From an uncultured Clostridia bacterium (GTDB lineage: Bacteria > Bacillota > Clostridia > UMGS1883 > UMGS1540): DNA of 64,000 nucleotides. This document shows positions 706-46,552 of this stretch, piece by piece (within the stretch, counting starts at the first letter, position 1; every line of letters starts with the position of its first letter). The position numbers were made by a program, and so were the translations under genes. The stretch spans positions 14,620-78,619 of the forward strand of contig CALCLY010000027.1 of assembly GCA_937966555.1 (NCBI GenBank), read 5' to 3'. The notes below the pieces were generated by a model, which did no database searches, was not told the DNA's origin, and saw only the letters and a list, made by a program, of their open reading frames with translations.

Positions 706-1341
706 ATGAAATCTTTAGGAAATGTTTTTATCCTCGGAGACAGTTACTCCACATTTGAAGGCGTGATACCTGAAAATTTTGATGCGTATTACCCTTCCGC
801 AGAACAGCGCGACAGCTTGAAAACCGCGGAGGAAACGTGGTGGATGCATGTTATAAACGAAACCAATTCGCATCTTCTTAAAAATTGCAGCTATTCCGGC
901 ACCACCGTTTGCAATATTACATATGAAGGGAAATATTGCCCCGACACGTCATTTGTCGGCCGCATTGCAGACTGGCTTGACACCGGCGAATATAAACCCT
1001 CCGATATAGACACAATATTTGTGTTCGGCGGCACAAACGACTCCTGGGCGGAATCACCCATAGGCAAGCCTAAATATTCCGGACGGACAGATGAAGATTT
1101 AAAAAGCTTCTCCCCCGCCCTTTGCGAGCTTTTTGAAACTTTAAAGAAAACATGCCCGAAGGCGCGCATCATAAACATAACAAATACAGATCTTAAAGAG
1201 GAAATATCGTCCGTTATGTCCGAAATCTGCGCGCATTATTCCATACAAAATATTGTTCTTACGAAAATAGATAAAGATAACGGTCACCCCACCGTTTTGG
1301 GAATGAAAAATATTGCCGATGAAATTTTGGCGGCATTATAA
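706..1341 (+). CDS. SGNH/GDSL-family hydrolase
   Basis: FILGDSYSTF (GDS block), GGTNDSW and DNGHPT (D-x-x-H) blocks. Start moved to ATG 706, which has AAGGA 9 nt upstream. Confidence 0.8.
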   Translation: MKSLGNVFILGDSYSTFEGVIPENFDAYYPSAEQRDSLKTAEETWWMHVINETNSHLLKNCSYSGTTVCNITYEGKYCPDTSFVGRIADWLDTGEYKPSDIDTIFVFGGTNDSWAESPIGKPKYSGRTDEDLKSFSPALCELFETLKKTCPKARIINITNTDLKEEISSVMSEICAHYSIQNIVLTKIDKDNGHPTVLGMKNIADEILAAL

Positions 1342-1352
1342 AAGAAGTGCAT

Positions 1353-1389
1353 AAAAAGCGGTGCAGCAAATATTGCTGCACCGCTTTTT
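1353..1389 (+). terminator. intrinsic terminator after the SGNH gene
   Basis: GCGGTGCAGC aaatatt GCTGCACCGC perfect 10-bp stem flanked by an A-run and a TTTTT run. Confidence 0.75.
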
Positions 1390-1850
1390 GCATTTGCGTT
1401 TGAGAGCGAACAAGCGCGAGCGACCGCCGGGCTTCGGAAAAATAGTGCAGAATGGACAAACTGAGCCCAAGCAAAGCTTGGGGTTACCCGAAGGCGTACA
1501 AAGGTACGCCGAGAGGCGAAGTTTTACTTCCTTATTTGCGTTGCGGAAACAAAACGGGCGACCACACAGGGTCGCCCCTACGGCGTCGGGACAAGCTGCG
1601 CTCCGTTCCGATTTTCGGAATGAAAATCAGTCACACGCTCCGCTGTTCCTCCTTTTCCGCGAAAAGTCACGTTTGCGAATGCTATGTGTTTGTAAACGCA
1701 CACATAACGCCTTCGCGGCACTACCAACTTTTCACGGTGGTTCGAGAACGCAGAAAAGGCTTAAAATCATAAAAAGCCGCGGCGTGTACGTGGCTTTTTA
1801 TTCATATATGAGGGTAGAAATGCAACGCATTTCGTAAGCCAAGGCAAGTG
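1390..1850. repeat. mosaic REP/BIME-like intergenic repeat cluster
   Basis: Modules are shared with 4636-4770 (gagagcgaacaagcg...gccgagaggcgaagtt) and 4320-4510 (about 190-bp element). Contains REP core 1555-1581 (minus orientation), terminator-like hairpin about 1769-1799, and a gagggtag-GAAATGCaacGCATTTC-cgtaag cassette at 1810-1837. Confidence 0.9.
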
Positions 1851-2257
1851 AAACTTGAACACGTATTGGTTTTTACATGCCAATTTTCCTCAAAACTGTG
1901 TCAAACACCTTGTAAATACGAAAAGTATTCACTGCGGTATTTTCCTTGTTTAAAGAAAAATTGGCTATGAAAAAACTGCTTGCACCTGCCGATGAGGAAT
2001 TTTATTAATAATTTAAGTGCAGAGGGTGCAGTCGGGCTGACGCCCGTCAAGCCCGATAAACTTAAAGAATTTTAAAATTCCCATCGCCAGGCAACATGTG
2101 TTCGGGTTTTACTTGCCGAAGCGCCGAATGCAATTTAAAACGACTGCTTGCTGTCGTTTTAGGAGCGAGCCGTGCGAGATCCCCTTTAGCCATTGTTTGA
2201 CATTATAACTGTGTGATATATTTACAAATAGGGAAGGAATAAAGAAAGGATGATATT

Positions 2258-3301
2258 ATGGCAAAAATTTCCGAAATTTTAGACAGCGCGGTAGAAAGCT
2301 TCCTTGAGATAACCCCAAACATCACATCGCACATGGAAAACTCCGAAAATCCGCATGGTGTTACAAAATCACAAGTGGGTCTCGGAAATGTTGACAACGC
2401 TAAACAGGCATCAAAAACCGAGTTTGATTCTCACACGGGCAACAAGGCAAATCCCCACGGCGTCACAAAATCGCAAGTGGGTCTCGGAAATGTTGACAAC
2501 GCTAAACAGGCATCAAAAACCGAGTTTGATTCTCACACGGGCAACAAGGCAAATCCCCACGGCGTCACAAAATCGCAAGTGGGTCTCGGAAACGTCGACA
2601 ACGCTAAACAGGCATCAAAAACCGAGTTTGACTCGCACGTTGCCGGCACCGCGTCAAAACATTCCGCCTCCGACATTGTCTACGATTCTTCAAGCGGCAA
2701 AAGTGTAAAAGATCAGATTCTTTCGATGCAGCTTAATGCAGGTCAGGGCACGCTTTTGCACAACGAACTTCAAAACCGCGACACGGCAAATCAGCACAGC
2801 ATAGACAGCATAACCGATTTGCGCGACGTTTTGGGCTACACAATCGTTATGACGGGCGAAACTACGGACGGCACAACGTATGTTGAGCTTTTGGGCGATC
2901 CCGCGCTTCCGCAGAGCAAGACAGGCGGATTTTTGGACGAGGACGGCAGGCTCACCGTGCCGCGCGGAATTGTTGCGCGCGCCGAAGTCAATATTATGTG
3001 CGCCCAGTACGCGGCGGACACGGACGGCGTCAACAAAATAAACGGCAATAGCTTAGCAAGATTCTATCTTGATACATGGGCTTTTGCATTAAACTCAATG
3101 CGCCAGATTTGGTATAAAGACGCGTCGGGAAACAATATGGAGTTTACCAAGTTTACAAGAAGCACGGACACCGCCGCAACCATTGACGCAAAACTCGCCT
3201 TTAAAGATGTGCAGTCAAATAAGCTCACGGTGTGCGGCGCGGCAGATACGCCGATGAAGTGGAGAGCGGAGATTAAAATTTCAAGTATTTTGAAGGTTTG
3301 A
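2258..3301 (+). CDS. phage tail-fibre-like protein with three NPHGVTKSQVGLGNVDNAKQASKTEFDSH repeats
   Basis: 347-aa ORF with AAGGA-type RBS. The H-x-VTK-x-QVGLGNVDN motif is characteristic of phage tail-fibre and receptor-binding proteins. I do not recognise the C-terminal 220 aa. Confidence 0.65.
   Translation: MAKISEILDSAVESFLEITPNITSHMENSENPHGVTKSQVGLGNVDNAKQASKTEFDSHTGNKANPHGVTKSQVGLGNVDNAKQASKTEFDSHTGNKANPHGVTKSQVGLGNVDNAKQASKTEFDSHVAGTASKHSASDIVYDSSSGKSVKDQILSMQLNAGQGTLLHNELQNRDTANQHSIDSITDLRDVLGYTIVMTGETTDGTTYVELLGDPALPQSKTGGFLDEDGRLTVPRGIVARAEVNIMCAQYAADTDGVNKINGNSLARFYLDTWAFALNSMRQIWYKDASGNNMEFTKFTRSTDTAATIDAKLAFKDVQSNKLTVCGAADTPMKWRAEIKISSILKV
2348..2638 (+). repeat. in-frame 102-bp tandem repeat, 2.9 copies, inside the tail-fibre-like gene
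   Basis: Copies start at 2348, 2450 and 2552. Every difference between copies that I can see is a synonymous third-position change. Confidence 0.95.
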
Positions 3302-3302
3302 G

Positions 3303-3441
3303 GAGCGGAGCACAAAACGGGCGACCACATAGGGGCGCCCCTACGGCGTCGGGACAAGCTGCGCTCCGTTCCGACGATATGAGGGTAGAAATGCAACGCA
3401 TTTCGTAAGCAACGCGCCGAGAAGAGCGAGCCGGGCGAGCG
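3303..3441. repeat. mosaic REP/BIME-like repeat cluster
   Basis: REP core 3318-3344 (minus orientation, degenerate arm). Also a ggacaagctgcgctccgttcc hairpin module, a gagggtag-GAAATGCaacGCATTTC-cgtaag cassette, and a gagcgagccgggcgagcga tail. Confidence 0.85.
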
Positions 3442-3462
3442 ATATAAAGAAAGGAGTTTATA

Positions 3463-4263
3463 ATGCCTGTTTTAAAAACCGAAAAAACACACGGTTTCAC
3501 CGTTTTGGACAATACTTTTCTGAGAGACAAAAATCTTTCTCTTAAGGCAAAAGGCATTTTAAGTCTCATGCTTTCGCTCCCTCCGGACTGGGAGTTTTCC
3601 GAAGCGGGGCTCACCGCAATATGCAAAGAAGGCAAAGACAGCGTGCACTCCGCCTTAAAGGAGCTTGAATCCTGCGGCTATATTATGCGCGAGCGCGTCA
3701 GAAACGAAAAAGGGCGCGTCACCTCGTCGCGCTACACCGTTTCGGAAACTCCTGTTTTTGAAAAACCCGTGAAGGAAAACCCGAAAGCGGCAAAACCAAA
3801 AGCGGAAAATCCGCAGCAATTAAATAAAGAAATAATAAATAAAGACATACAAAATAAAGATGTATCAAATACTTATCGAATCGGTTCTTATGAAACGATA
3901 GGACTTGATGAGTACCGCGCATACTTAAAGCTCATAAAAAAGAACATAAGCTACGAAACGCTTTGCCGGCGGCGCAAACACGAGATTCCCAAAATTGACG
4001 GCATTTGCGACCTGCTTTGCCGGACGCTCTGTTCAAAGCGCGAAAGCATTGTGATTTCCGCGGAAAGCTATCCCGCAGACCTTGTAAAATCGCGCCTTTT
4101 AAAGCTTCATGACGGGCATGTTCTCTATGTTCTTGACTGCATGAGCGAAAACACGGCTCATATCCGCAATATAAAAAAATATATTCTTGCCGCGCTTTTT
4201 AACGCACCTTCCACCATCGATGCGTATTATGAGGCTAAGGCGAATGAATTGAGCAATATGTAA
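3463..4263 (+). CDS. mobile-element replication-initiator-like winged-HTH protein (N-terminal HTH, C-terminal DUF6017-like region)
   Basis: GFTVLDNTFLRDKNLSLKAKGILSLMLSLPPDWEFSEAGL...ALKELESCGYI pattern. The C-terminus VKSRLLKLHDGHVLYVLDCMSENTAHIRNIKKYILAALFNAPSTID resembles proteins of Firmicute conjugative elements and phages. Assigned from memory, not from a search. Confidence 0.6.
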   Translation: MPVLKTEKTHGFTVLDNTFLRDKNLSLKAKGILSLMLSLPPDWEFSEAGLTAICKEGKDSVHSALKELESCGYIMRERVRNEKGRVTSSRYTVSETPVFEKPVKENPKAAKPKAENPQQLNKEIINKDIQNKDVSNTYRIGSYETIGLDEYRAYLKLIKKNISYETLCRRRKHEIPKIDGICDLLCRTLCSKRESIVISAESYPADLVKSRLLKLHDGHVLYVLDCMSENTAHIRNIKKYILAALFNAPSTIDAYYEAKANELSNM

Positions 4264-4775
4264 CGGCGAGCGGCCGCATAGGGACAAATCACGAATTGTC
4301 CGCATGGTGTGCGGACAATAAACGGGCGACCACATAGGGTCGCCCCTACGGCGTCGGAACAAGCTGCGCTTCGTTCCGATTTTGAATACAAAATCAGTCA
4401 CATGCTCCGCTGTCCCTCCTTTTCCGCGAAAAGTCACGTTTGCTTCGGCTATGTGCCCCAAAATGTGCACATAACGCCTTCGCGGCACTACCAACTTTTC
4501 GCGGTTGTTTTGGGGAAAGCGGTTTAAAATCATAAAAAGCCGCGACCTGTGCGTGGCTTTTTATTCCTATATGAGGGTAGGAAACAACATGTTGTTTCCG
4601 TAAGCGGAGCGCCGAATGCAACCAAACGCAATGCTTGCTTTGCGTTTGAGAGCGAACAAGCGTGAGCGACCGCCGGGCTTTGGGAAAATAGCGCAGAATG
4701 GACAAACTGAGCCCAAGCAAAGCTTGGGGTTACCCGAAGGCGTACAAAGGTACGCCGAGAGGCGAAGTTTGTTCA
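4262..4775. repeat. mosaic REP/BIME-like repeat cluster
   Basis: Contains: hairpin GGACAAATCACGAATTGTCC 4282-4301; REP core 4323-4349 (minus); a 190-bp element to about 4510; terminator-like hairpin about 4533-4562; perfect palindrome GGAAACAACATGTTGTTTCC 4580-4599; AAACGCAAtgcttgcTTTGCGTTT; and a gagagcgaacaagcgtgagcgac...gaggcgaagtt tail. Confidence 0.9.
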
Positions 4776-4910
4776 TAGCATAAAGCAAATAAGATGCAGA
4801 AATTTGCTGTGCGAATTTCAACATCTTTCTGCCATCTTCGATATACACTCTAAAAAAACATTTTTGTTTATTCTTTTTGCTTTATGCGATCTGTGCATTT
4901 TTACAAAGTC

Positions 4911-5348
4911 CTATATTACGTAGTCGTTTGCTCCGCGCTCTGTATACTCCTCAATCAAATCGCGCAGCGTAACCGAATCAAGATAATCCTCCACCGCCTT
5001 ATAAAGTCCGCGCCACAGCGGCAGCGTCATACAACCCTGCGCACGCGGACAGTCGGGCGGAGACTGCTCCGCACACAGCACCGGGGCAAGGCTGCCCTCG
5101 GTACATCGGAGAATTTCGCCGGCGGTGTAACACTCCGGCGCCTTTCTGAGCATATAGCCGCCGCGGTAGCCTCTGTTGGTTTTGAGAAAACCGGCACTGT
5201 TTAAAACAGGCACAATCTGCTCCAGATATTTTTTTGAAATACCCTGCCGCTCCGCGATGTCGTTTAAAGGAATGTATTCCTCCTCGGCATGCATGGCAAG
5301 GTCAAGCATCATGCGGATTGCATAGCGGCCTTTTGTTGAAATTTTCAT
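4911..5348 (-). CDS. Rrf2-family transcriptional regulator (CymR/IscR-like)
   Basis: MKISTKGRYAIRMMLDLA N-terminal HTH typical of the Rrf2 family. Lies directly downstream of cysK on the same strand. Confidence 0.9.
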   Translation of the reverse strand: MKISTKGRYAIRMMLDLAMHAEEEYIPLNDIAERQGISKKYLEQIVPVLNSAGFLKTNRGYRGGYMLRKAPECYTAGEILRCTEGSLAPVLCAEQSPPDCPRAQGCMTLPLWRGLYKAVEDYLDSVTLRDLIEEYTERGANDYVI

Positions 5349-5360
5349 TATTTCACCTCA

Positions 5361-6290
5361 TCAGTCTTCAAACATCGGTGTTGAGAGATATCTGTCTCCG
5401 GTGTCGGGCAGTAAAGCTACAATAACTTTTCCGCGGTTTTCGGGTCTTCTTGCAAGTTCTGCCGCCGCAAATACCGCAGCTCCCGACGAAATGCCGACCA
5501 AAACGCCCTCGCGTCTTGCAATTTCTTTTCCGGTTTTGAAAGCGTCTTCGTTCTGAACGGCTATAACCTCATCGTAAATCTTGGTGTTGAGCGTTTCGGG
5601 AACAAAGCCTGCGCCTATGCCCTGTATTTTGTGAGGACCTGCAACGCCCTTTGAAAGAACGGGCGATGTTGCGGGCTCCACTGCAACAACCTTAACATTC
5701 GGGTTTTTGGATTTTAAATATTCGCCCACGCCCGTAACCGTGCCGCCCGTACCTACGCCGGCAACGAAAATATCAACTTTTCCGTCCGTATCGTTCCAGA
5801 TTTCGGGGCCGGTTGTTTTTTTGTGCGCTTCGGGGTTTGCGGGGTTTGTAAACTGGCTCGGGATAAATCCGCCCGGAGTTTCGGAAAGAAGCTCTTCAGC
5901 CTTTGCAATTGCGCCTTTCATGCCCTTTGCGCCCTCAGTCAGCACGATTTGTGCGCCGTACGCCTTTAAAAGATTGCGGCGCTCAACGCTCATGGTCTCG
6001 GGCATTGTGAGGATAATTTTATATCCTCTTGCCGCCGCAACGGACGCCAAGCCTATGCCGGTGTTGCCGCTTGTGGGTTCTATTATAACCGAGCCCGGGC
6101 GAAGCTTTCCGCTTTTTTCCGCCTCGTCAATCATGGCAAGCGCAACTCTGTCTTTTACGCTTCCGGCAGGATTGAAATATTCAAGCTTTGCCAGAATATC
6201 AGCCTCAAGACCTTCAGCCTTTATGTAGTTTGTAAGTTTCAGAAGCGGTGTGCCTCCTATTAAATCGGTTGCTTTTTCATATACTTTCAT
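5361..6290 (-). CDS. cysK: cysteine synthase A (O-acetylserine sulfhydrylase)
   Basis: [28 protein letters not shown] (PLP lysine), TSGNTG and GTGGT motifs. Start trimmed to ATG 6290, which has GGAAGGGAG upstream. Confidence 0.92.
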
Positions 6291-6366
6291 AATGAACTCC
6301 CTTCCGCCGAGCGTGCCGGCTAAAAAAATAATTAAATTTAGTTTACCTATCTGTTTTATAGGCTTT

Positions 6367-6395
6367 ATTATAGCACCGCTTCTTATGCTTGTCAA
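6367..6395 (-). promoter_or_regulatory. consensus sigma-A promoter for cysK
   Basis: On the minus strand: TTGACA (6395-6390), exactly 17 nt, TATAAT (6372-6367). Confidence 0.7.
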
Positions 6396-6448
6396 TACTT
6401 TTTTTAAAATTTTTTATTTTTTTGAAAAGAATTCAATATTGAAAACGG

Positions 6449-6950
6449 AAAAAGGCTTAAATTCATAAAAAGCCGCGGCGTGTACGTGGCTTTTTATTCC
6501 TATATGAGGGTAGGAAACAATGTGTTGTTTCCGTAAGCGGAGCGCCGAATGCAACCAAACGCAATGCTTGCTTTGCGTTTGAGAGCGAACAAGCGTGAGC
6601 GACCGTAAAAGCCGCGACCTGTGCGTGGCTTTTTATTCCTATATGAGGGTAGGAAACAATGTGTTGTTTCCGTAAGCGGAGCGCCGAATGCAACCAAACG
6701 CAATGCTTGCTTTGCGTTTGAGAGCGAACAAGCGTGAGCGACCGTAAAAGCCGCGACCTGTGCGTGGCTTTTTATTCCTATATGAGGGTAGGAAACAATG
6801 TGTTGTTTCCGTAAGCGGAGCGCCGAATGCAACCAAACGCAATGCTTGCTTTGCGTTTGAGAGCGAACAAGCGTGAGCGACCGTAAAAGCCGCGACCTGT
6901 GCGTGGCTTTTTATTCCTATATGAGGGTAGAAATGCAACGCATTTCGTAA
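6449..6950. repeat. tandem array of a 139-bp composite hairpin unit, about 3.5 copies
   Basis: Unit order: AAAAGCCGCG-N7-CGTGGCTTTTT hairpin, tatgagggtag, GGAAACAATGTGTTGTTTCC, cgtaagcggagcgccgaatgcaa, AAACGCAAtgcttgcTTTGCGTTT, gagagcgaacaagcgtgagcgaccg. The landmark gaccg recurs at 6601, 6740 and 6879, giving a 139-bp period. Copies 2-4 are near-identical. Confidence 0.95.
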
Positions 6951-7135
6951 GCCAAGGCAAGCACGGGCGACCACACAGGGTCGCCCCTACGGTCGTTTTA
7001 GGAGCGAACAAGTGTGAGCGACACCGCGGGGATAGGAAAAAAGCTTTGGAATCGACAAACTGAGCCGCAGCAAGGTAAAACTTGCTGCGGGTTACCCGAA
7101 GGCGTATGTGTATACGCCGAGAGGCGAAGTTTGCC
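6951..7135. repeat. mosaic REP/BIME-like repeat cluster
   Basis: REP core 6964-6990 (minus), ggagcgaacaagtgtgagcgac, and a variant of the ...acaaactgagcc...gttacccgaaggcgta...tacgccgagaggcgaagtt module seen at 1400-1530 and 4640-4770. Confidence 0.85.
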
Positions 7136-7214
7136 CGATAGCAAGAAAATAATAATTTCAGAAAAATCAAAATATTGATTTTTCTACTTTAAAATAAATA
7201 AAACATTACTGTTT

Positions 7215-7462
7215 ATTTTTTTCTTGCGTTCCGGAGTTTTTTAACATCCCCTTTTGTGTTGCGGAAAAAAACGGGCGACCACTGGGGGGTCGCCCCTACG
7301 GTATAATATTGAGAGCGTATAAATTCATAAAAAGCCGCGACCTGTGCGTGGCTTTTTATTCCTATATGAGGGTAGAAATGCAACGCATTTCGTAAGCGAA
7401 GCGCCGAATGCAAACTCGAAGGGCATACTTGTAGCCCTTCGAAGAGCTCGCCGTGCGAGCGA
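7215..7462. repeat. mosaic REP/BIME-like repeat cluster abutting the uxaA stop codon
   Basis: Contains the ttcttgcgttccggagttttttaacatccc module (7221-7255, also at 46583, 46647 and 50176), REP core 7272-7299 (minus), a terminator-like hairpin about 7328-7356, and the cassette unit 7363-7462 with alternative stems. Confidence 0.9.
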
Positions 7463-7464
7463 AT

Positions 7465-8835
7465 TTATAATACCACGCCGTCCTTAAATATCGATATCTC
7501 CTTGTATCCGTTTACCTCGTTTTTTGTCTCCTTACCGGACGCGACGGATATTACAAAATCGAAAAAGTCATCGTCCCGGTCCGCACCTTCAAGCACGGGC
7601 GAGGAGTCATAATCTATCCAGCCTTTTTTTCTGTCGGCAAGAACCTTGTTTGTGGATATCTTCACCGTGGGTACGGGAGCGCCGAGAGGAGTTCCCCTGC
7701 CGGTTGTGAAAAGAATCATATGCACTCCGGCGGCAGTTAAATTCGTGATTGCGACAATGTCGTTTCCGGGGCCGTTTAAAAGCGACAGACCGTTTTCCGT
7801 AACCCTGTCTCCGTAATCCAGAACAGCCGTCACTTCGCCTTTTCCGCCTTTCTGTATACATCCCGTGGATTTTTCCTCAAGGGTTGTGATTCCGCCTTCT
7901 TTATTTCCGGGCGATGGGTTCTCGTAAACCACCTGTCCGTGAGACGTGAAATAATCCTTGAAATTGTTTATAAGCTTTACGGTGTCGTCAAAAACGGCTT
8001 TGGATTTGCAGCGCTCCATAAGAAAATGCTCCGCTCCGAACATTTCGGGCACCTCCGTCAGCACACATGCGCCGCCGAAAGAAATCATCTTATCGGAAAA
8101 TCTGCCGACAAGCGGATTTGCGCTTATGCCGGAAAAGCCGTCGCTTCCGCCGCATTTAAGACCTATCTTAAGCTTTGATACGGGCACGGGCTCTCTTTTA
8201 AACGTATCGGCATATGCCTGAAGTTCCTTTATAATCTTTGTGCCTTCCGCTATTTCGTCCCCGCAGTCCTGGCAGTTTAAAAACCTGATGCGCTTTTCGT
8301 CGTAATCGCCGAGAACCTTTTTAAATTCGGCAATATTGTTATTTTCGCAGCCGAGACCCAAAACCAGCACACCTGCGGCATTCGGATTCATGCAGAGGCC
8401 TCGCAGCACAAGCTGCGTTGTTTTATGGTCGCCGCAAAGCTGCGAGCAGCCGAAAGGATGCGGAAAAGAATATGCTCCCGTAAGAGACGCAAGCTTTTCG
8501 GCAGTCTTATTTACACAGCCGACGGTATTTATTATCCATACCTCGTTTCTTATTCCGACTTCTCCGTTTCCGCGCACGTATCCCATGAAAGTTTTGTCCG
8601 TGTGAACACGTTCTATGGGTTCGTTCTTCGGGCAATATGTGTATTCCAGATTGCCCGAAAGATTCGTTTTCATGTTATGCGTGTGAACATGCTCGCCCTT
8701 TTTTATGTCACATACGGCGTGACCTATGGGGTTGCCGTATTTTATTATGTTTTCGCCCTTTTTTATATCGCAGAGCGCATATTTATGCCCGTTTTGAAGG
8801 TTAACCTCGACATTGTCAAGTACATTAATTCTCAT
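7465..8835 (-). CDS. uxaA: altronate dehydratase (UxaA family)
   Basis: N-terminal SAF-domain pattern LDNVEV...GHKYALCDIKKGENIIKYGNPIGHAV.DIKKGEHVHTHN, as in UxaA. 456 aa. Confidence 0.9.
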   Translation of the reverse strand: MRINVLDNVEVNLQNGHKYALCDIKKGENIIKYGNPIGHAVCDIKKGEHVHTHNMKTNLSGNLEYTYCPKNEPIERVHTDKTFMGYVRGNGEVGIRNEVWIINTVGCVNKTAEKLASLTGAYSFPHPFGCSQLCGDHKTTQLVLRGLCMNPNAAGVLVLGLGCENNNIAEFKKVLGDYDEKRIRFLNCQDCGDEIAEGTKIIKELQAYADTFKREPVPVSKLKIGLKCGGSDGFSGISANPLVGRFSDKMISFGGACVLTEVPEMFGAEHFLMERCKSKAVFDDTVKLINNFKDYFTSHGQVVYENPSPGNKEGGITTLEEKSTGCIQKGGKGEVTAVLDYGDRVTENGLSLLNGPGNDIVAITNLTAAGVHMILFTTGRGTPLGAPVPTVKISTNKVLADRKKGWIDYDSSPVLEGADRDDDFFDFVISVASGKETKNEVNGYKEISIFKDGVVL

Positions 8836-10093
8836 ATTTTGAAACCTCGTCGTAAAGGAAGCTTAAATCCTCGTCCCAGAAATCCTTGTTTGCCAGTATC
8901 TCGCGAAGGCTCTTTTCCTTCATAAACTTCATAACGTCCTCAGCGTCGTTGGGAGTTCCCTTTTTGTAAAACTCAACAAGCTTTGCAAATGAGAAAAGCA
9001 GCGTCTCCGGCATTTTATTGTATCTTTTTATATATTCAAGTATCGAAGGCAGCACGCGAACCTTAAATTTGCTTACGCTGTTTAACGCAATCGAGGAAAG
9101 GTAATGCCTGATGTACGGATTTGCAAATCTTTCGATAACGCTGTCTGCGTATTCCACAAGTTCACCGTGCGGCAAATCAAGCGTGGGGATAATCTCATCG
9201 TAAACGCATTTTTTGATGTACGCGAGCATTTTGGGGTCATCTATGCAGCTTTTTACAGTGTCGAATCCCGAAAGAAGCGCATAGGGCACAAGAGATGTGT
9301 GAGCGCCGTTTAATATTCTTACTTTTCTTGTTCTGTACATTTCGAGATTGTCGCAGATTATTACGTTAAGACCCGCTTTTTCAAACGGCAGATCCGTCAG
9401 AGCCTCCTTGGGGCCTTCTATTACCCAAAGGTGGAAATACTCCGATGTGTTGAGCATTTTATCTTCATAGCCGAGGTCGATTTTCTCGTCTTTGGGGTAT
9501 CCGGTGTTGATTCTGTCAACAAGCGTTGAGCAGAAAACATTTTTTTCGCCTACCCAGTCGATAAAGTCCCGGCAGAGATTCCACTCTGCGGCATATCTCA
9601 AAACGATTTCCTTAAGTTTTTTGCCGTTTTTGTCGATAAGTTCACAGGGAAGGAAAACAAATCCGTCAAGTCCGAGCGTAAATCTCTTGTAAAGCAGCGC
9701 GCAAACCTTTGCCGGGAACGATGCCGGCGGACAGTCGGTTGCTTTGTCACCCTCGTGATACGCAATGCCCGATTCCGTTGTGTTTGAAATAACAAATTTA
9801 AAATCGGGGTTTTCCGCAAGCGCCAAAAACGCGTCATAGTCGTCATAAGGCTTAACGCAGCGGACAATGGAGTCTACCTTTGTTATTTCAACGCCCTCCG
9901 TTCCGCGGATGATATGCGTGTATTTGCAGCCCTGCGCCGTGAGCATGTCGCACATTCCGCGCTCTATGGGCTGTACCGCAACAACACCGTAATTTGTAAG
10001 ACCCTTATCATTCATTTTCTGTATCATCCAGTCTGCAAAGCCGCGCAGGAAGCCGCCCTCGCCAAACTGTATTATTTTTTCTGTTCTTGACAT
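8825..10093 (-). CDS. uxaB: tagaturonate reductase / altronate oxidoreductase (mannitol dehydrogenase family)
   Basis: KIIQFGEGGFLRGFADWMIQ N-terminus as in UxaB. Start trimmed to ATG 10093, which has AAGAGGAGG upstream. The 3' end overlaps the uxaA start. Confidence 0.85.
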   Translation of the reverse strand: MSRTEKIIQFGEGGFLRGFADWMIQKMNDKGLTNYGVVAVQPIERGMCDMLTAQGCKYTHIIRGTEGVEITKVDSIVRCVKPYDDYDAFLALAENPDFKFVISNTTESGIAYHEGDKATDCPPASFPAKVCALLYKRFTLGLDGFVFLPCELIDKNGKKLKEIVLRYAAEWNLCRDFIDWVGEKNVFCSTLVDRINTGYPKDEKIDLGYEDKMLNTSEYFHLWVIEGPKEALTDLPFEKAGLNVIICDNLEMYRTRKVRILNGAHTSLVPYALLSGFDTVKSCIDDPKMLAYIKKCVYDEIIPTLDLPHGELVEYADSVIERFANPYIRHYLSSIALNSVSKFKVRVLPSILEYIKRYNKMPETLLFSFAKLVEFYKKGTPNDAEDVMKFMKEKSLREILANKDFWDEDLSFLYDEVSKYEN

Positions 10094-10244
10094 ATTTGTT
10101 CCTCCTCTTTTTCTTTTTATATTACTGTTATTGTACCGCAATTTTATAGTGTTTTCCTTTAATATATTATCATATTGAATGAAAATCTTTAATTTTTTGT
10201 TGTATTTTGTTTTGAAATGTGATATTATTGTTTCGGTGATTTAT

Positions 10245-11045
10245 ATGACTGTATTTACAGACGAAAAAATAGAGCTTTTCGACAGGCAGAAAAGAGACGC
10301 GTCTTATATAATGGACCAGGCGCACTACCACAGCAAAAACGAGCTTTATTTTTCAAAAAAAGGAAAAACAAAATATTTTATAGGTGACGAAATATTTATT
10401 CTTGAACCGGGAGACATGATTTTTGTCCCGGCAGGCTCTTTTCACAAGACGGACTGCGGCGTAAGAGAGAGAATCCTTCTTGTTTTTGACAATGATTTTT
10501 TGGGCGGCAGCTATCAAAAGTACATAGAAAGCCTCTCAAAAGACAAGCTTATAAGAATACGCCCCGACAAGCTTTCGGAGATTAACGGGATTTTCAATAA
10601 AATCGAGAAAGAAGGCATGAACAAGCAGGAGGATTACCTGGAACTCGAAAAGCTGTATCTGCGACAGCTTCTTATTCTTGTCTCGCGGTACAGACTTCAA
10701 AATGTTTCGTCCGAGCTGAGCGAAATTTACAGTATTATCCAAAATGTTGTAAAGTATATAAATGAAAATTACAGCTCCGATTTAAGTCTCCCGTATCTGG
10801 CGCACAAATACGGAATGAGTCCCGGTTATCTTTCAAGGCAGTTTAAATCCGTTACGGGCGTGGGACTTAACGAATATATAAACATTTCCAAGGTGACGGC
10901 CGCCGCAAAACTTCTTTCGGAATCGAATTTGTCCGTAACAAAAGTGTCCGAGCTTTGCGGGTATAATGACAGCAATTATTTTTCAACCGTTTTTAAAAAA
11001 TATATGGGCACAACGCCGAAAAAATATTCCGCGGAAAAGGCGTGA
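10245..11045 (+). CDS. AraC-family transcriptional regulator (cupin + HTH), divergent from uxaBA
   Basis: The C-terminal pattern LSLPYLAHKYGMSPGYLSRQFK...GYNDSNYFSTVFKKYMGTTPKKY is the AraC-type HTH pair. The start is uncertain (10179 or 10245). Confidence 0.85.
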   Translation: MTVFTDEKIELFDRQKRDASYIMDQAHYHSKNELYFSKKGKTKYFIGDEIFILEPGDMIFVPAGSFHKTDCGVRERILLVFDNDFLGGSYQKYIESLSKDKLIRIRPDKLSEINGIFNKIEKEGMNKQEDYLELEKLYLRQLLILVSRYRLQNVSSELSEIYSIIQNVVKYINENYSSDLSLPYLAHKYGMSPGYLSRQFKSVTGVGLNEYINISKVTAAAKLLSESNLSVTKVSELCGYNDSNYFSTVFKKYMGTTPKKYSAEKA

Positions 11046-11059
11046 AAAAGTAAAAACGG

Positions 11060-11136
11060 GAAGCGGAACACAAAACGGGCGACCACTGGGGGTCGCCCCT
11101 ACGGTACATTGTTGAAAGCGAACAAGCGTGAGCGAC
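11060..11136. repeat. REP/BIME-like repeat
   Basis: REP core 11076-11102 (minus orientation, loop actggggg) followed by gaaagcgaacaagcgtgagcgac. Confidence 0.85.
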
Positions 11137-15850: not shown

Positions 15851-16030
15851 GTCGCTCACGCTTATTCGCTCTCAACAATGTACCGTAGGGGCGACCCTGT
15901 GTGGTCGCCCGTGCTTACATTCGGCGCTTCGCTTACGAAACGGCAAGTCGTTTCTACCCTCATATCGTCGGAACGAAGCGCAGCTTGTTCCGACGCCGTA
16001 GGGGCGCCCCCCAGTGGTCGCCCGTTTATT
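15851..16030. repeat. mosaic REP/BIME-like repeat cluster
   Basis: REP cores 15885-15911 and 15998-16024 (both plus orientation). A third stem variant of the cassette occurs here (cttacGAAACGgcaagtCGTTTCtaccctcata), together with the gaacgaagcgcagcttgttcc module. Confidence 0.9.
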
Positions 16031-16152: not shown

Positions 16153-19100
16153 ATGAAAAAACATTTAAGCGCCCTTTTGGCTTTATGCATTGCCGTTTTG
16201 CTGCTGCCCTCAGCGGCGTTTGCCTCGGACGACGACACAATAAACGGTATAATGTATGACAAAGAGCATGTCACGGTATCGGACATATCATATTCAAACA
16301 ATCAATCCTGGGACTTTAATAAGGCAGGCTCATGGGACCGCCCCGAATGGCTCGGCATAGGCGACTGCATCGTCTCCCCGTGGGACGGCGGGTATGCCAG
16401 AAGGTCCCCGTATATTCTCACCGTAACGTTTACGTCAGACGCGGATTTTACGGTGTCTCTCGATTACGCCTTCTCGGCACACTACTCAAACGGATATGTT
16501 GCGGTTGACGGCACAAAATACATAGAACTTGAAAACAGCGGCAGCGACATAGATCAATATCATTGCTTAAAAGATCACCTCAGCCAAAAGCTTTCGGCAG
16601 GCACGCACAAGGTGGAAATATACTTCCATAAAGGGGGAGACAACGGAAACTTCATGGCGTATGTCTATAACTTCACCGCCTGCACCGCAGACCACGGCGC
16701 CATAGCCGGCAATGTTGTTTTGCCCGACTGCTACAACGGCGGATATACGGATTTCACCTGTTCGGTATGCGGCTATTCGTGGCGCGCGGACGAGACGCCG
16801 CGCCTTGAGCACGAGTTTTCGGACGGGGTATGCATTCACTGCGGCGAATACAAAATGGATCAGGACGAAAACGGCGTATATCTTATTAAATACCCGGGTC
16901 AGCTCAGCCAGTTTTCAAGAATAGTAAACGAAACAAATGCCGGCGCTTCGGCAAAGCTTGTAAACGATATTTTATTCAATGAAAACGTTCTGAATGAAAA
17001 CGGCGAATTAAACGCGGAAAACCGCGCGTCATTTACGCAGTTTACGCCCATCGGCACACCGTCAAACCCCTTCTCGGGCACATTTGACGGGGACGGGCAC
17101 ACCGTAAGCGGACTTTATATTTACCCCGAGGAGGCAATCACGCAGGGCAGGGAAGATGCAACAAAACTTGCTCTTGTCGGCTGCGCGTCGGGTGCGGCGG
17201 TGAAAAACGTTACGATTAAAGACTCGTATGTAAAGGGCACGGAATATGCCGCGGGCATATGCGCCAATTCGAAGGAGTCTCTCATAGAAAACTGCCGCGT
17301 GCTTGATTCGCGCATAGAGGCGCTCTCCAACGCAGGCGGAATATGTGCGAAAATCGAGGTGTCGAAATCTTCCAAATCCGCCTCCGTAAAGCGCTGTGTA
17401 AACTCTGCCGCAGTTACAGCTTCAAACGAGCGCGCGGCAGGCATTGCGGCAAACCTTTATTACTATAACATTTCAATAGAAAACTGTTTAAACCTCGGCA
17501 GTATAAACGCCGGCTCCGCGGCAGGCGGCATCGCGGCATATGCCGGAACTTATCCGTATTCAATATCAAGCTGCCTTGATTTGGGCAATATACAAGCCAA
17601 CACCAACAAAGGTCACATAATCGGCGAATACTATTATTCAAAGTTCAAAGTAACAAACTGCGGCTATGTACTGGACGGCACAAGTCCCCTTGGCAGCGGC
17701 AGCGGCAGCGGCTTTACAAATGACAGCCGTGCCTTTTCGAAAGACGCGTTATCCTCCGGCGCGGCGGCATATTATTTAAACGGCAGTCAAAGCGAGAATG
17801 TTTCCTGGTATCAGACTCTGGGGGAGGACCCCTACCCCACGCCGGACAGCAACCGTAAAACCGTTTATGCCGCGGGAAACTATTTCTCAAACATAAACTG
17901 CCCTCACGCAAACACCGAATCGGTTCACGTCGACCCGACATGCACAGATGAAGGCTATGACGGCGAAAAGTGTGCGGACTGCGGCGTGGTTCTCAAAAAG
18001 ACCGTGACCATTCCTCCCACGGGCGAGCACGATTATAAGGATTATGTATGCACCGTGTGCAAAGACGGAGAAACACCCGACGGCACGGGAACGGACACGG
18101 ATCCCATTATCATAAGTAACCCCGGAAACCTGCTGTGGCTCAGCCAGTATTATAACGACAAGCTGCGCGAAAATGCTTCTCTTCCGGAATATGTATATGT
18201 TTCAACCGCCTGCGCGATTGACATGAGTCTCCTCCCTGCCGGAACCAAGTTTGACCCTATCGGAAGCGACTCAAAGCCCTTCAGCGGCATATTTGACGGC
18301 GGCAATTCAAAAAACAGCTTTGAGATAGCTATAGATAATTTAAGCGTAAACGCTCTTGACAACGCGGGTCTTTTCGGATACACATCAAACGCCTCCATTA
18401 AGAATGTTCTTTTAACCAACGCCGACATACACGGCAGAAACAATGTCGGCGCAATTGCGGGAGCTTCGTATTCGATTTCATCGACCCACACCGTTTTGTC
18501 ACGCAACATAGTTGACCACTCTAAAATCAGCGGCACAAACAACGTGGGCGGCATTGTCGGCACGCTCGGCAATTGCGTTCTTTCGGAATGCAGCGTCTCC
18601 TCAACCGGGTTATCCGTTTCGGGGTCCGGCTACACATATATCGGCGGAATCGCTGCCATAAACAACGGCAGCGTAACAAACTCGCTTGCCGTGAATAACA
18701 TAATGACCGGCAGCGACGACGGCTCAAATTATACGGGAGGTATCACGGCGTTTAACCAAGGCTATACAGCGCTCTCCGCGGCGTACTCCTGCAAATACAA
18801 CAAAGCCACATACAGCGGCGGAATTGTCTGCGTCGGCAAAACCCCGTTATCCTCTTATTACTTCACGCAGCATAAGATTAATTCCATGGCGGACGGCACA
18901 CCTGCTTCCTCCGAACAATTTGCTTCGGGCGAAATATGCTACGCTTTAAATTCCGGCGTAACGTACGGCGCGCAGATATGGTACCAGGTTCTTACAGCAT
19001 CCGAAGGAGTGCCGCTGCCGATTTTTTACGAAAAAGGAACTGTGTACAAAAACAAAGACGGCTACTCAAACACGCCCGAGCTTGTGCTGACGCTTTCGGG

Positions 19101-19338
19101 CAATGAACTTAATGTCCGCAACCCCATAGCGGCGGACGCGGAATCAAAATCGGCTTTGCTTCATTTTGCGGCATACAAAGACGGCGAGCTTATCTCCTTC
19201 CGCCGCATGACAGTTAAAAGGGACTGCACGGTTAATATTTCGGAGCTGGGGCTCGACATAGAAAATGCCGACTCGGTTAAAATCTTTGCCTGGGGCGGCG
19301 CCGCATCTCCTGCCGAAAAACCTCTTATTTATAAATAA
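16153..19338 (+). CDS. large secreted surface protein with two GLUG-type repeat regions and Cys-rich modules
   Basis: Signal peptide MKKHLSALLALCIAVLLLPSAAFA. The lead-in motifs NPFSGTFDGDGHTVSGLYI and KPFSGIFDGGN are each followed by repeated xGGIxG units, as in GLUG-motif proteins. CxxC pairs are also present (TCSVCGY...CIHCGE, CADCG...CTVCKDG). Confidence 0.75.
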   Translation: MKKHLSALLALCIAVLLLPSAAFASDDDTINGIMYDKEHVTVSDISYSNNQSWDFNKAGSWDRPEWLGIGDCIVSPWDGGYARRSPYILTVTFTSDADFTVSLDYAFSAHYSNGYVAVDGTKYIELENSGSDIDQYHCLKDHLSQKLSAGTHKVEIYFHKGGDNGNFMAYVYNFTACTADHGAIAGNVVLPDCYNGGYTDFTCSVCGYSWRADETPRLEHEFSDGVCIHCGEYKMDQDENGVYLIKYPGQLSQFSRIVNETNAGASAKLVNDILFNENVLNENGELNAENRASFTQFTPIGTPSNPFSGTFDGDGHTVSGLYIYPEEAITQGREDATKLALVGCASGAAVKNVTIKDSYVKGTEYAAGICANSKESLIENCRVLDSRIEALSNAGGICAKIEVSKSSKSASVKRCVNSAAVTASNERAAGIAANLYYYNISIENCLNLGSINAGSAAGGIAAYAGTYPYSISSCLDLGNIQANTNKGHIIGEYYYSKFKVTNCGYVLDGTSPLGSGSGSGFTNDSRAFSKDALSSGAAAYYLNGSQSENVSWYQTLGEDPYPTPDSNRKTVYAAGNYFSNINCPHANTESVHVDPTCTDEGYDGEKCADCGVVLKKTVTIPPTGEHDYKDYVCTVCKDGETPDGTGTDTDPIIISNPGNLLWLSQYYNDKLRENASLPEYVYVSTACAIDMSLLPAGTKFDPIGSDSKPFSGIFDGGNSKNSFEIAIDNLSVNALDNAGLFGYTSNASIKNVLLTNADIHGRNNVGAIAGASYSISSTHTVLSRNIVDHSKISGTNNVGGIVGTLGNCVLSECSVSSTGLSVSGSGYTYIGGIAAINNGSVTNSLAVNNIMTGSDDGSNYTGGITAFNQGYTALSAAYSCKYNKATYSGGIVCVGKTPLSSYYFTQHKINSMADGTPASSEQFASGEICYALNSGVTYGAQIWYQVLTASEGVPLPIFYEKGTVYKNKDGYSNTPELVLTLSGNELNVRNPIAADAESKSALLHFAAYKDGELISFRRMTVKRDCTVNISELGLDIENADSVKIFAWGGAASPAEKPLIYK

Positions 19339-20640: not shown

Positions 20641-20925
20641 TAGCTCACGCTTGTTCGCTCCTAAAACGACCGTAGGGGCGACCCTGTGTGGTCGCCCGTG
20701 CATGCATTCGGCGCTTCAACAACACATTGTTTCCTACCCTCATAGAGGTATAAAAAGCCACGTACACGCCGCGGCTTTTTATGATTTTAAGCCGCTTTCA
20801 ATAATGTACCGGTGTGGTCGCCCGTTTTGTTTCCGCACACCAAACGGACAATTCGTGAATTGTTCCTACAAAATAAAATCCAAATGCGCGGACAACAATT
20901 TTTCCGCATCCAATAATGTCCCGAC
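20641..20925. repeat. mosaic REP/BIME-like repeat cluster
   Basis: Contains gctcacgcttgttcgctc, REP core 20672-20698 (plus), inverted cassette and terminator-like hairpin modules, half REP 20814-20824, hairpin GGACAATTCGTGAATTGTTCC, and the aaatgcgcggacaacaatttttccgca module (an inverted copy is at about 63268-63298). Confidence 0.9.
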
Positions 20926-22019: not shown

Positions 22020-22040
22020 AATAATCTTTGCCTTTCTTCC

Positions 22041-22225
22041 TCACGCTTGTTCACTCTCCATAAATACCGTGAAAAGTTGGTAGTGCCGCGAAGGCGTTAT
22101 GTGTGCATTTATAAACACCAAGCATTCGCAAACGTGACTTTTCGCGGAAAAGGAGGGACAGCGGAGCGCAGCTTGTCCCGACGCCGTAGGGGCGACCCTA
22201 TGTGGTCGCCCGTTTTGTTTCCTCA
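22041..22225. repeat. mosaic REP/BIME-like repeat cluster
   Basis: The ccgtgaaaagttggtagtgccgcgaaggcg...acgtgacttttcgcgg element has 11-bp inverted ends. REP core 22186-22212 (plus). It lacks the CTGATTTTG...CAAAATCAG hairpin that is present in the copies at 26.4 and 30.5 kb. Confidence 0.9.
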
Positions 22226-41754: not shown

Positions 41755-41902
41755 TTAAAATCATAAAAAGCCGCGGCGTGTACGTGGCTTTTTATTCCTA
41801 TATGAGGGTAGGAAACAATGTGTTGTTTCCGTAAGCGGAGCGCCGAATGCAACCAAACGCAATGCTTGCTTTGCGTTTGAGAGCGAACAAGCGTGAGCGA
41901 CC
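41755..41902. repeat. single copy of the 139-bp composite unit between the convergent LRR and sigG genes
   Basis: Same module order as the 6449-6950 array. It ends 2 nt before the sigG stop codon (41905-41907). Confidence 0.92.
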
Positions 41903-45910: not shown

Positions 45911-46036
45911 ATGAATTTTGACATAAATCTTTTTCTTTATACACTTCCCGTTATGGGGAAAGGCATGGCAGGCATTTTTATTGTGACCGCCGCGATTATA
46001 CTGTGCATGAAACTTATGACGGCGGCGGATAAGTAG
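45911..46036 (+). CDS. small OadG-like membrane subunit (41 aa)
   Basis: MNFDINLFLYTLPVMGKGMAGIFIVTAAIILCMKLMTAADK contains one transmembrane helix and the GMxxIF pattern of gamma subunits. Below the ORF-track size cutoff. Its TAG stop lies inside REP core 46033-46059. Confidence 0.5.
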   Translation: MNFDINLFLYTLPVMGKGMAGIFIVTAAIILCMKLMTAADK

Positions 46037-46059
46037 GGGCGACCCTATGTGGTCGCCCG
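46033..46059 (+). repeat. REP core immediately upstream of the RAYT gene
   Basis: GTAGGGGCGACCctatgtGGTCGCCCG. Confidence 0.95.
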
Positions 46060-46077
46060 AAATAAAGGAATGACGAA

Positions 46078-46530
46078 ATGAACAAAATGCCAGAAAGAAA
46101 GCAAACCAGGTTGAAGGATTATGATTATTCGCAAAACGGATATTATTTCATAACAATATGTACCCATAACAGACAAAATTTATTCGGTGAAATCGTAGGG
46201 GCGACCCTATGTGGTCGCCCGAATAATCCTGATAAAATGATTGAAAAATGGTTATTGGAATTGGAAAACAAGTTTGATGGTGTCAAAATATGCGAATATA
46301 TTATAATGCCGAATCATTTGCATTTTATAATATCGAAAACGGGCGACCACGCAGGGTCGCCCCTACGGGATATTGTGGGTTGGTTTAAAACAATGACAAC
46401 AAATGAATATATAGAAAATGTAAAAAAAATATGTTTCCGCCGTTTGATAAAAAAATATGGCAACGCAATTATTACGAACATATTATTCGCGATGAAAGTG
46501 ATTATATTGAAACGAAGGAATATATATTAA
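46078..46530 (+). CDS. REP-associated tyrosine transposase (RAYT; IS200/IS605-type Y1 HUH family), zero-frame ORF that ends before the catalytic Tyr motif
   Basis: KQTRLKDYDYSQNGYYFITICT N-terminus, HUH motif MPNHLHFII and WFKTMTTNEY helix. REP cores lie in frame at 46195-46221 (VGATLCGRP) and 46340-46366 (TGDHAGSPLR). After the A8 run (46422-46429) the zero frame reads unrelated sequence. Confidence 0.8.
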   Translation: MNKMPERKQTRLKDYDYSQNGYYFITICTHNRQNLFGEIVGATLCGRPNNPDKMIEKWLLELENKFDGVKICEYIIMPNHLHFIISKTGDHAGSPLRDIVGWFKTMTTNEYIENVKKICFRRLIKKYGNAIITNILFAMKVIILKRRNIY

Positions 46531-46547
46531 ATAATCCTTTAAAATGA
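46428..46547 (+). other. -1 frame continuation of the RAYT gene encoding the catalytic-Tyr module
   Basis: The -1 frame reads NMFPPFDKKIWQRNYYEHIIRDESDYIETKEYILNNPLK then stop at 46545-46547, which is the conserved C-terminus of this family. It joins the zero frame at the A_AAA_AAA heptamer 46422-46428. This is a frameshifted pseudogene, a homopolymer sequencing error or recoding. Confidence 0.7.
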
Positions 46548-46552
46548 GAAAA

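Follow-up and report, generated by a model that had tools for sequence, protein, structure and literature searches.

A BIME-like mosaic of intergenic hairpins, probably of a REP/RAYT system, in an uncultured gut Clostridia bacterium

Organization of the locus

The DNA analyzed was a 64,000-nt stretch (the window) of contig CALCLY010000027.1, assembly GCA_937966555.1, from an uncultured Clostridia bacterium. At 2.49 Mb the genome has a G+C content of 42%; that of the contig of the window is 46.6%. In the first 30 kb of the window nearly all intergenic gaps were repetitive. The genes between the repeats were ordinary and single-copy (GDSL lipase, Rrf2 regulator, PLP enzyme, altronate dehydratase, mannitol dehydrogenase, AraC, DegT, TsaB, YifB, ABC transporters, argH and sigG/sigF). 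A contaminant origin of the contig was rejected, as the core genes of the window had no second copy in the genome and the repeat designated Y was also carried by large contigs.

The unit under study was a composite at 7330–7462, in the order T - ATTCC - M1 - H1a - M2 - H2b - M3y. M3y ended at a distance of 2 nt from the altronate-dehydratase stop codon (gene 7465–8835, minus strand), and a copy of the REP sequence R lay just upstream of the unit. The components were as follows.

7273–7299, plus strand: REP copy R, an iREP on this strand, GGGCGACC...GGGGTCGCCCCTAC
7330–7356, plus strand: terminator-like hairpin T, AAAAGCCGCG-acctgtg-CGTGGCTTTT
7363–7375, plus strand: linker M1, TATATGAGGGTAG, terminating in the REP head GTAG
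7375–7391, plus strand: hairpin H1 version a, GAAATGCaacGCATTTC, a perfect 7-bp hairpin (GAAATGC-aac-GCATTTC)
7392–7413, plus strand: linker M2, GTAAGCGAAGCGCCGAATGCAA, with core motif GTAAGCGRAGCGCCGAATGYAA
7415–7444, plus strand: hairpin H2 version b, CTCGAAGGGCatacttgtaGCCCTTCGAAG, folding as CTCGAAGGGC-atacttgta-GCCCTTCGAAG
7444–7462, plus strand: M3y, a palindromic variant of M3, GAGCTCGCCGTGCGAGCGA

Hairpin T was flanked by an A-run on its 5' side and a T-run on its 3' side, and its G.T wobble was invariant in the orientation of the unit. The first stem base of H1a was the G of GTAG. Within M1, TGAGGGTAG showed no variation across 24/24 aligned units. When folded as RNA and compared with shuffled sequence, the 151-nt unit gave z = −5.4; the 139-nt array unit described below gave z = −4.2 when folded as DNA, and each hairpin version, folded singly, formed the expected hairpin.

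An earlier note on this DNA had described a conserved scaffold in which self-complementary hairpins were replaced by different ones. All of the sequences that it quoted, and the scaffold with its different self-complementary hairpins, were recovered within 1–4 nt of where it had placed them. Its unit of 7363–7462 ran from M1 through M3y and left out hairpin T. The scaffold that it equated with that of 6497–6603 was the same in the left and central linkers; the right part differed, M3y being a variant of M3 that forms a small perfect palindrome.

Other copies in the window

The remaining copies in the window were these.

1772–1848, plus strand: partial unit T-M1-H1a-M2x, at the end of cluster 1404–1848
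2120–2178, plus strand: partial unit with the end of M2, H2c (2137–2160) and M3x
3319–3439, plus strand: cluster R-S1-M1-H1a-(short M2)-M3x, ending 20 nt upstream of a start codon (gene at 3463)
4535–4667, plus strand: single unit T-M1-H1b-M2-H2a-M3, within a 490-bp cluster (Z, R, S1, X, unit, Y)
6468–7019, plus strand: head-to-tail array with a 139-bp period, three units T-M1-H1b-M2-H2a-M3 and a fourth, T-M1-H1a-M2x-REP-M3
6501–6600, unit of the scaffold comparison: H1b GGAAACAAtgtgTTGTTTCC at 6513–6532, H2a AAACGCAAtgcttgcTTTGCGTTT at 6557–6580
15854–16023, minus strand: cluster R-S1-M1-H1c'-M2-R-M3, H1c' with one A.C mismatch
20643–20779, minus strand: unit T-M1-(truncated H1b)-M2 remnant-R-M3
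41766–41898, plus strand: single unit T-M1-H1b-M2-H2a-M3, between convergent genes
57690–57825, minus strand: single unit T-M1-H1b-M2-H2b-M3, the recombinant combination H1b + H2b

The array at 6468–7019 held 3.5 tandem copies of the 139-bp unit. Its units at 6468–6881 had the same T, M1 and M2 as the unit at 7330–7462, with H1b (GGAAACAA-tgtg-TTGTTTCC), H2a (AAACGCAA-tgcttgc-TTTGCGTTT) and M3 (GAGCGAACAAGCGTGAGCGAC) in place of the other modules. Metagenome contigs of other strains broke at this array.

All clusters were collinear excerpts of one master order, (Z) R S1 X T M1 H1 M2 H2 M3 (Y), and across the window the modules of any one cluster lay on one strand. In the cluster at 15854–16023 the H2 slot was occupied by a REP in the orientation opposite to H1. 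The third version of H2 that had been reported at about 2140–2165 was H2c at 2137–2160, and the inverted copy of H2b reported at 57706–57735 was located at 57707–57736 on the minus strand.

Hairpin T had the form GCCGCG-N7-CGTGGC followed by TTTTTATT and lay 40–60 nt past the stop codons at 41726 and 57883. Judged by its sequence it looks like a bidirectional intrinsic terminator. It was not listed by a consensus terminator scanner, probably because the A and T runs pair and lengthen the stem.

Hairpin versions and pairing

The comparison of hairpin versions covered 33 units, drawn from this genome together with 14 gut-metagenome contigs of the same species. H1 occurred in four stem versions, in which the outer G-AAA/TTT-C was common and the inner three pairs differed.

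H1a: inner pairs TGC/GCA
H1b: inner pairs CAA/TTG, with one extra G-C pair
H1c: inner pairs CGG/CCG
H1d: inner pairs CAT/ATG

Thirty-six of the 37 H1 instances (11 distinct sequences) were fully Watson-Crick. The exception was the window copy at 15937–15954 (minus strand, GAAACGActtgCCGTTTC, one A.C mismatch), which is the third H1 version that the earlier note had placed at about 15938–15960. In all four versions the last G of GGGTAG opened a perfect stem of 7–8 bp. The stem of H1 was variable between an invariant TGAGGGTAG of M1 and an invariant start of M2 (CGTAAGC). Pairing in H1 was counted by script, outside the MAFFT consensus structure; the MAFFT alignment gave no single H1 consensus structure, owing to the additional base pair of version b and to differences between the loops. 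A small ORF from the ATG of M1 (9–10 codons in the H1a and H1b units) was considered and rejected, as it was out of frame in H1c and had no SD.

At least three stem versions of H2 (a, b and c) were present, each self-complementary. The forms H2a, a', b, b', b'' and c were of equal length, aligned without gaps and carried CTTG at the loop centre. The four stem pairs that differed between H2a and H2c were all compensated (4/4). Smaller steps were also seen: an A-T pair became G-C between H2a and H2a', and in the H2b series GGGC/GCCC passed through GGGC/GTCC, a G.T intermediate seen in metagenome contig L042, to GGAC/GTCC. In the T stem of contig L055 a C-G pair was replaced by T-A. M3x (GAGCGAGCCGTGCGAGCG) and M3y (GAGCTCGCCGTGCGAGCG) differed at two adjacent bases, by which a direct repeat became a perfect inverted repeat. 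Where R (GGGCGACC...GGGTCGCCCCTAC) stood in the H2 slot, it had replaced the 5' arm and loop of H2c and left the 3' arm GTCGTTTTAG behind; it is a fourth occupant of the slot and not a stem swap. The variants were not unrelated insertions, the result that would have spoken against the earlier note: they shared flanks and were positional homologues.

Covariation was counted on an alignment of 24 distinct, related units, with the structure taken as T, the outer H1 pairs and H2. Pairing cells amounted to 95.2% as against 85.6% in shuffles, and 0/500 shuffles reached the observed value; H2b, whose register is shifted by one relative to H2a and H2c, was scored as unpaired at five columns. Nine pairs were changed on both sides, a number reached by 2/500 shuffles, and slid controls had 39–58% of cells paired. 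RNAalifold independently recovered T and the core of H2. Because the rows are related and the versions discrete, independent compensatory events are few. The view that structure was kept while sequence was free stands for the retention of self-complementarity through change; selection on RNA or ssDNA structure is one possible cause of the kept pairing.

Reassortment and differences between strains

Among the 33 units H1a and H1b were each found with H2a, H2b, H2c and R, H1c with H2a and R, and H1d with H2a; H2a, H2b and H2c each occurred with three M3 types. This reassortment points to recombination within the 22-nt M2 and at the junction of H2 and M3. At six or more orthologous loci the versions differed between strains with flanks 98–99.9% identical, and module insertions or deletions of 130–490 bp were present at orthologous loci. 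Examples are listed here.

Intergenic gap flanked by the DUF6017-type and Rrf2 genes (unit 4535–4667): 490 bp with H1b + H2a in this genome; 130 bp with H1a + H2c in L043, whose flanks are 99.4–99.9% identical to this genome
Window 11077–11133: compact in this genome; 390 bp longer in L050
Window 15854–16023: H1c' + R in this genome; H1a + H2a in L050
Window 22039–22211: T through H2 missing from this genome; present in four other strains, with H1a or H1b
Contig C19, 32410: H2a-M3 in this genome; H2c-M3x in L058, both behind the same H1b
Contig C19, 46735: H1a' + H2c in this genome; H1a' + H2a' in L059; H1d + H2a in L020

Such differences between flanks of about 99% identity indicate that hairpins were swapped in place by recombination. 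In contig L050 the unit at 7330–7462 was conserved bar two adjacent M2 bases, which matched the variant at window position 3405, so linker patches as well as hairpins appear to be replaced from a shared pool. The suggestion that cassettes are exchanged as units was the best-supported part of the earlier note, given the reassorted versions and these orthologous loci.

Larger rearrangements had their breakpoints in clusters, and in contig L025 the window segment 46033–64029 appeared inverted between two inverted RAYT/REP sites; metagenome mis-joins at repeats may be an alternative source of such apparent rearrangements.

REP sequences and RAYT genes

The sequence R consists of GTAG and GGGCGACC-N5-7-GGTCGCCC and is a classic REP. 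Exact copies of it numbered 25 genome-wide, and 17 of these lay on the contig of the window. All R copies and M1/H1 anchors were intergenic except two R copies inside a RAYT gene. Nunvar et al. defined REPs by a 5' GT[A/G]G followed directly by a palindrome of variable composition (PMC3686654), a form found in both R and H1; as a GTAG-headed perfect palindrome, H1 is a REP by this published sequence definition. When the sequences of H2a–c and T were read on either strand, no GTAG or CTAC foot was present. Four units of this genome (C19:32521 and window 6918, 15966 and 20746) combined H1 as REP with an inverted R as iREP and M2 between them, which is the basic unit of a BIME. Units with H2a, H2b or H2c as the second hairpin contained no REP/iREP pair.

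A Y1 transposase search gave one weak PF01797 match, at window 46141–46431, within the following element.

46033–46688, plus strand: REPtron with a RAYT gene at 46078–46547, frameshifted in an A8 run near 46421

The product read through the frameshift matched NF047646, the NCBIfam REP-associated tyrosine transposase (E = 3.5e-21, 75.6 bits against a cut-off of 80). It carried the HUH (NHLHFI) and catalytic-Tyr (QRNYYEHIIR) motifs. Copies of R flanked the gene at 46033, 46553 and 46663, and two more lay in frame inside it (46195 and 46341). A Y1 HUH gene with both motifs and flanking REPs is what characterizes a REPtron, and REPs within tnpA_REP are a hallmark of TnpA_REP subclass 2.4 (PMC6006769). 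A second RAYT copy was located at the contig end and continued on a small contig; its 73 C-terminal residues, which span the frameshift site, were unframeshifted and in a single frame.

Distribution

Eighteen real M1 anchors were found in the genome, 12 on the contig of the window, 4 on C19, 1 on C1 and 1 on C32. With 25 R copies, this is a low copy number for a REP family. The small repeat-bearing contigs (C7, C10, C14, C15, C32 and the end of C4) were joined to each other in metagenome contigs, as was C19 to C27. The family therefore lies in essentially one region together with both RAYT copies, of about 150 kb as estimated from the lengths of the contigs involved.

BLAST with the unit gave no match in 40 relatives, and none of the 21 further genomes of the family carried the REP pattern. 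A scan of 185,579 species representatives for the exact scaffold pattern returned 10 single, unrelated, chance-like matches, our own estimate of the chance expectation being a few tens. An exact scan of metagenomes for the M2 motif gave 41 loci, of which 27 were chance matches in unrelated contigs. The other 14 were real and all came from gut-type assemblies, several titled human gut metagenome; their gene blocks were mostly 98–99.9% identical to this genome.

Comparison with known repeats

The nearest counterparts are the BIMEs of E. coli, built of y, z1 and z2 REPs with L and S linkers (PMC3333891; PMC2817692). Both are intergenic mosaics of hairpins and linkers with a GTAG foot on the REP, with REP types that differ while complementarity is kept, with inverted REP/iREP pairs (here in four units), with tandem amplification of a composite unit (as in BIME-2) and with a Y1 HUH transposase gene that has its own flanking REPs. 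The y and z REPs of E. coli "differ but retain complementarity", and BIME linkers and copy number vary between E. coli strains (PMC3333891), as module content does here at single loci. Because of these matching features the conserved scaffold with swapped stems was read as a BIME-like mosaic. The present family differs in that its host is a Firmicute of the gut Clostridia and not a proteobacterium, its copies number tens and not hundreds, and they lie within about 150 kb around the RAYT genes rather than genome-wide. Its mosaic also includes the footless hairpins H2a–c and the terminator module T, its loops and linkers are conserved while the stems vary, and its H1 stems are perfect, without the mismatch that E. 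coli TnpA_REP requires.

In REPIN/RAYT systems and TnpA_REP subclass 2.4 (PMC3337134; PMC6006769), as here, one RAYT type goes with cognate GTAG-headed REPs. Inverted REP doublets are shared as well, and so are REP copies inside the tnpA_REP reading frame, the hallmark of subclass 2.4. Unlike in those systems, the majority of units lack the symmetry of a REP doublet, two GTAG-footed families (R and H1) accompany a single RAYT type, and H1 exists in four stem versions.

The pneumococcal BOX element (boxA-boxB(n)-boxC; PMC3049150) is likewise a modular Firmicute intergenic repeat with conserved ends and a variable middle, predicted to fold, situated near gene ends and variable between strains. 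It has no sequence similarity to the present units, its modules vary in number where stems are replaced here, and it has neither an associated HUH transposase nor a GTAG foot. Integron attC sites resemble the units in conserving structure over sequence, in lying between genes and in being recombined as folded single strands; here, unlike there, no IntI integrase and no R/L core sites accompany them and the intervening genes are not cassettes.

Interpretation

We consider it probable (about 60%) that the unit is a member of a BIME-like mosaic intergenic repeat family of a REP/RAYT system. The GTAG-headed REP family and the RAYT in the same window, both missed by the earlier note, explain most of the pattern. 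The repeat is a clear fresh instance of the REP/BIME type, species-specific and in a gut clostridium, and not a new system.

The swapping of hairpins would be recombinational. The conserved linkers may serve as the tracts for crossover or gene conversion, the RAYT may cleave ssDNA at iREP and linker sites and exchange the strands, or both routes may operate. For the E. coli TnpA_REP, cleavage and recombination of ssDNA at such sites have been demonstrated in vitro (PMC3333891); RAYT activity in the present organism we infer from homology and from this literature. The scaffold may be the part read by the enzyme, by recombination or by both, with stems that need only fold. Copies that fold would alone be recognised and propagated as ssDNA hairpins, the enzyme presumably reading the GTAG foot and the shape, and the palindromes may in addition correct themselves through template switching. 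A secondary benefit to the host is conceivable, in that the modules would give flanking genes terminators and 3'-end hairpins.

Several observations sit poorly with a BIME. Most units are not strict REP/iREP pairs, because H2a–c and T have no GTAG or CTAC foot. The RAYT genes are flanked by R only and not by H1; one RAYT type stands against two or more hairpin families; the surrounding 300 bp contain no R at about 6/14 unit loci; of the two RAYT gene copies one is frameshifted; and independent compensatory events are few. The perfect H1 palindromes, moreover, do not have the stem mismatch that E. coli TnpA_REP was found to need (PMC3333891). The footless H2 and T hairpins, the perfect H1 and the flanking of the RAYT genes by R only, together with cluster orientation and the spacing of M3, leave room for a role at the RNA level, as terminators and protective hairpins.

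That the units are, as a whole, cis-acting RNA modules of 3' or 5' UTRs, with terminator and stabilising hairpins under selection on RNA and the REP/RAYT as a mere neighbour, is unlikely, although it comes second among the readings considered. It agrees with the intrinsic-terminator form of T, with its invariant G.U in the sense orientation of the unit, with the stepwise change of H2b from G-C through G.U to A-U and the compensatory changes in T and H2a, and with loop centres (CTTG) kept while stems vary. The co-orientation of 12/15 clusters with the gene whose 3' end they trail fits an RNA-level role at least as well as it fits a BIME, and in 9/26 copies of this genome M3 ended 12–29 nt upstream of an SD and start codon. 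Against it, three clusters are antisense to flanking transcription, including the five-unit array at 6468–7462, in whose units no promoter-like site was found on either strand. Confinement to one species and one stretch of about 150 kb around a RAYT is the pattern of a spreading repeat and not of a conserved regulator, and at one and the same gene strains differ in the presence and the version of a unit. A known structured RNA was rejected: no Rfam family reached its gathering score anywhere in the window, and at E ≤ 1 there were only three chance-level matches (E 0.09–0.16) in window 1300–7500, none of them on a unit.

Less probable again is that the repeats are neutral palindromic junk, kept complementary by template switching alone and homogenised by RecA-dependent gene conversion, so that neither a dedicated enzyme nor a function would play a part. 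Published work documents that hairpins are generated and preserved by template switching (10.1101/2021.04.15.439925; PMC7202029), the two-base change between M3x and M3y that makes a perfect palindrome is a signature of it, and mismatched H1 intermediates are nearly absent. This account leaves unexplained the invariant single-stranded GTAG foot and the linkers, the co-location with RAYT genes, the tandem amplification and the G.T intermediate of H2b in L042, and linkers of 13–22 bp are short for RecA-mediated exchange.

A stronger form of the REP/RAYT reading strikes us as improbable to a still greater degree. Here the units would be a dedicated RAYT substrate set, the enzyme reading only the invariant single-stranded linkers and the loop centres, which would leave the stems free, and cleavage and strand exchange at shared junctions (e.g. 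GAGAGCG) would turn them into portable joints that shuffle and amplify hairpins and the intervening genes, making the ~150 kb an HUH-transposase-driven, integron-like plasticity zone. Finally, attC-like gene-cassette recombination sites that shuffle the genes between them were rejected as the most doubtful reading of all: gene-block neighbours do differ between strains with breakpoints in clusters, the L055 unit adjoins a gene missing from this genome, and many start codons are preceded by M3 at a short, constant spacing, but no integron integrase was found in the genome (the best TIGR02249 match scored 56.7 bits against a cut-off of 265, and every match was an ordinary tyrosine recombinase from another contig), clusters are separated by long single-copy genes of core type (tsaB, argH, sigG/sigF, ABC transporters) and not by promoterless cassettes, and dispersed-repeat rearrangements and metagenome mis-joins give the same picture.

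Read as a BIME-like mosaic, the family is a compact, low-copy REP/BIME case in an uncultured gut Firmicute and may represent an early stage of spread. To our knowledge, detailed dissection of REP/BIME mosaics has been nearly confined to Proteobacteria. Conspecific metagenome contigs make visible a family around its transposase genes, an enumerable pool of modules and the replacement of hairpins in place. It thus offers a tractable natural system for two questions: whether REP-type hairpins diversify while remaining foldable through enzyme-level selection, RNA-level selection or template switching, and whether RAYTs act locally. For genome annotation, the repeat family explains the repetitive intergenic gaps of this region and the assembly breaks there.

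Genomic distribution and orientation of the repeats

Across the whole genome, nearly all copies of the REP (R, a GTAG-headed palindrome) and of the mosaic modules were found in a region of approximately 150 kb around both copies of the gene for the REP-associated tyrosine transposase (RAYT). Such a local REP family is unusual, and its confinement may reflect recent or cis-limited spread. The G+C content of the repeat-bearing contigs was 44-51% (41% in C14) versus 42% for the genome, and single-copy core genes were present on them.

Repeat-bearing contigs of the ~150 kb region
C27 (the contig holding the window), C19, C32, C7, C10, C14 and C15
C4, at its end

All R copies left of approximately 11.1 kb (window 1556-11102) were in a single orientation, and those at 15.9-48.2 kb (window 15885-48214) were in the opposite one, the sole exception being the copy within the RAYT gene. 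In five cases this pattern held whichever way the adjacent gene was read.

Linker M3 and the intergenic gaps

In 9 of 26 copies the end of M3, the last linker of the mosaic cluster, was located 12-29 nt upstream of a Shine-Dalgarno sequence and start codon, the genes being co-oriented and at least 83 codons long. Because M3 lies this close to the start, the clusters occupy all of the sequence between the stop codon of the preceding gene and the ribosome-binding site of the next one. These gap-filling clusters contained a terminator-like hairpin (T) and no visible promoter.

Copies of M3 near start codons
Window 3424, 20643, 22039, 26321 and 30298
C7:157
C16:90889
C19:46848

The M3y variant (GAGCTCGCCGTGCGAGCG, window 7444-7462) differed from M3x (GAGCGAGCCGTGCGAGCG, window 2163-2178 and 3424-3439) by two neighbouring bases, a change that yields a perfect 6-bp palindrome in M3y. 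The difference looks like a template-switch mutation.

Modules X and Y

Module X, located between S1 and T, is a long hairpin of approximately 140 nt (CCGCGAAAAGT ... ACTTTTCGCGG) enclosing a second hairpin, and was repeated in 4-6 clusters. Y is a separate repeat of approximately 75 nt with two hairpins (AATGGACAAACTGAGCC...GGTTACCCGAAGGCGTA...TACGCCGAGAGGCGAAGTTT) and about 16 copies, many of them on contigs without other modules; it had no match in Rfam.

Copies of X and Y
X: window 4384-4525 and 1596-1760
Y: window 1440-1530, 4685-4775 and 7035-7125; also on C14, C23, C25 and C36

Differences among conspecific strains

In one metagenome strain (L025 1-10806) a block ending at window 46033 was followed by a 350-bp repeat cluster and then by window 64029, from which the coordinates descended. 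The junction looks like an inversion of approximately 18 kb (window 46033-64029) between the two inverted RAYT/REP sites, although it may instead be an assembly mis-join. The gene for a secreted protein of 1061 residues (window 16153-19338) appears to have lost approximately 1.9 kb internally in one metagenome strain (window 16391-18295; L058 10961-11282).

On another metagenome contig (L055 1-1247) R and a full unit, its T stem compensated (GTCGCG/CGTGAC), were located immediately upstream of a gene without counterpart in the studied genome; the repeats thus border strain-specific genes too.
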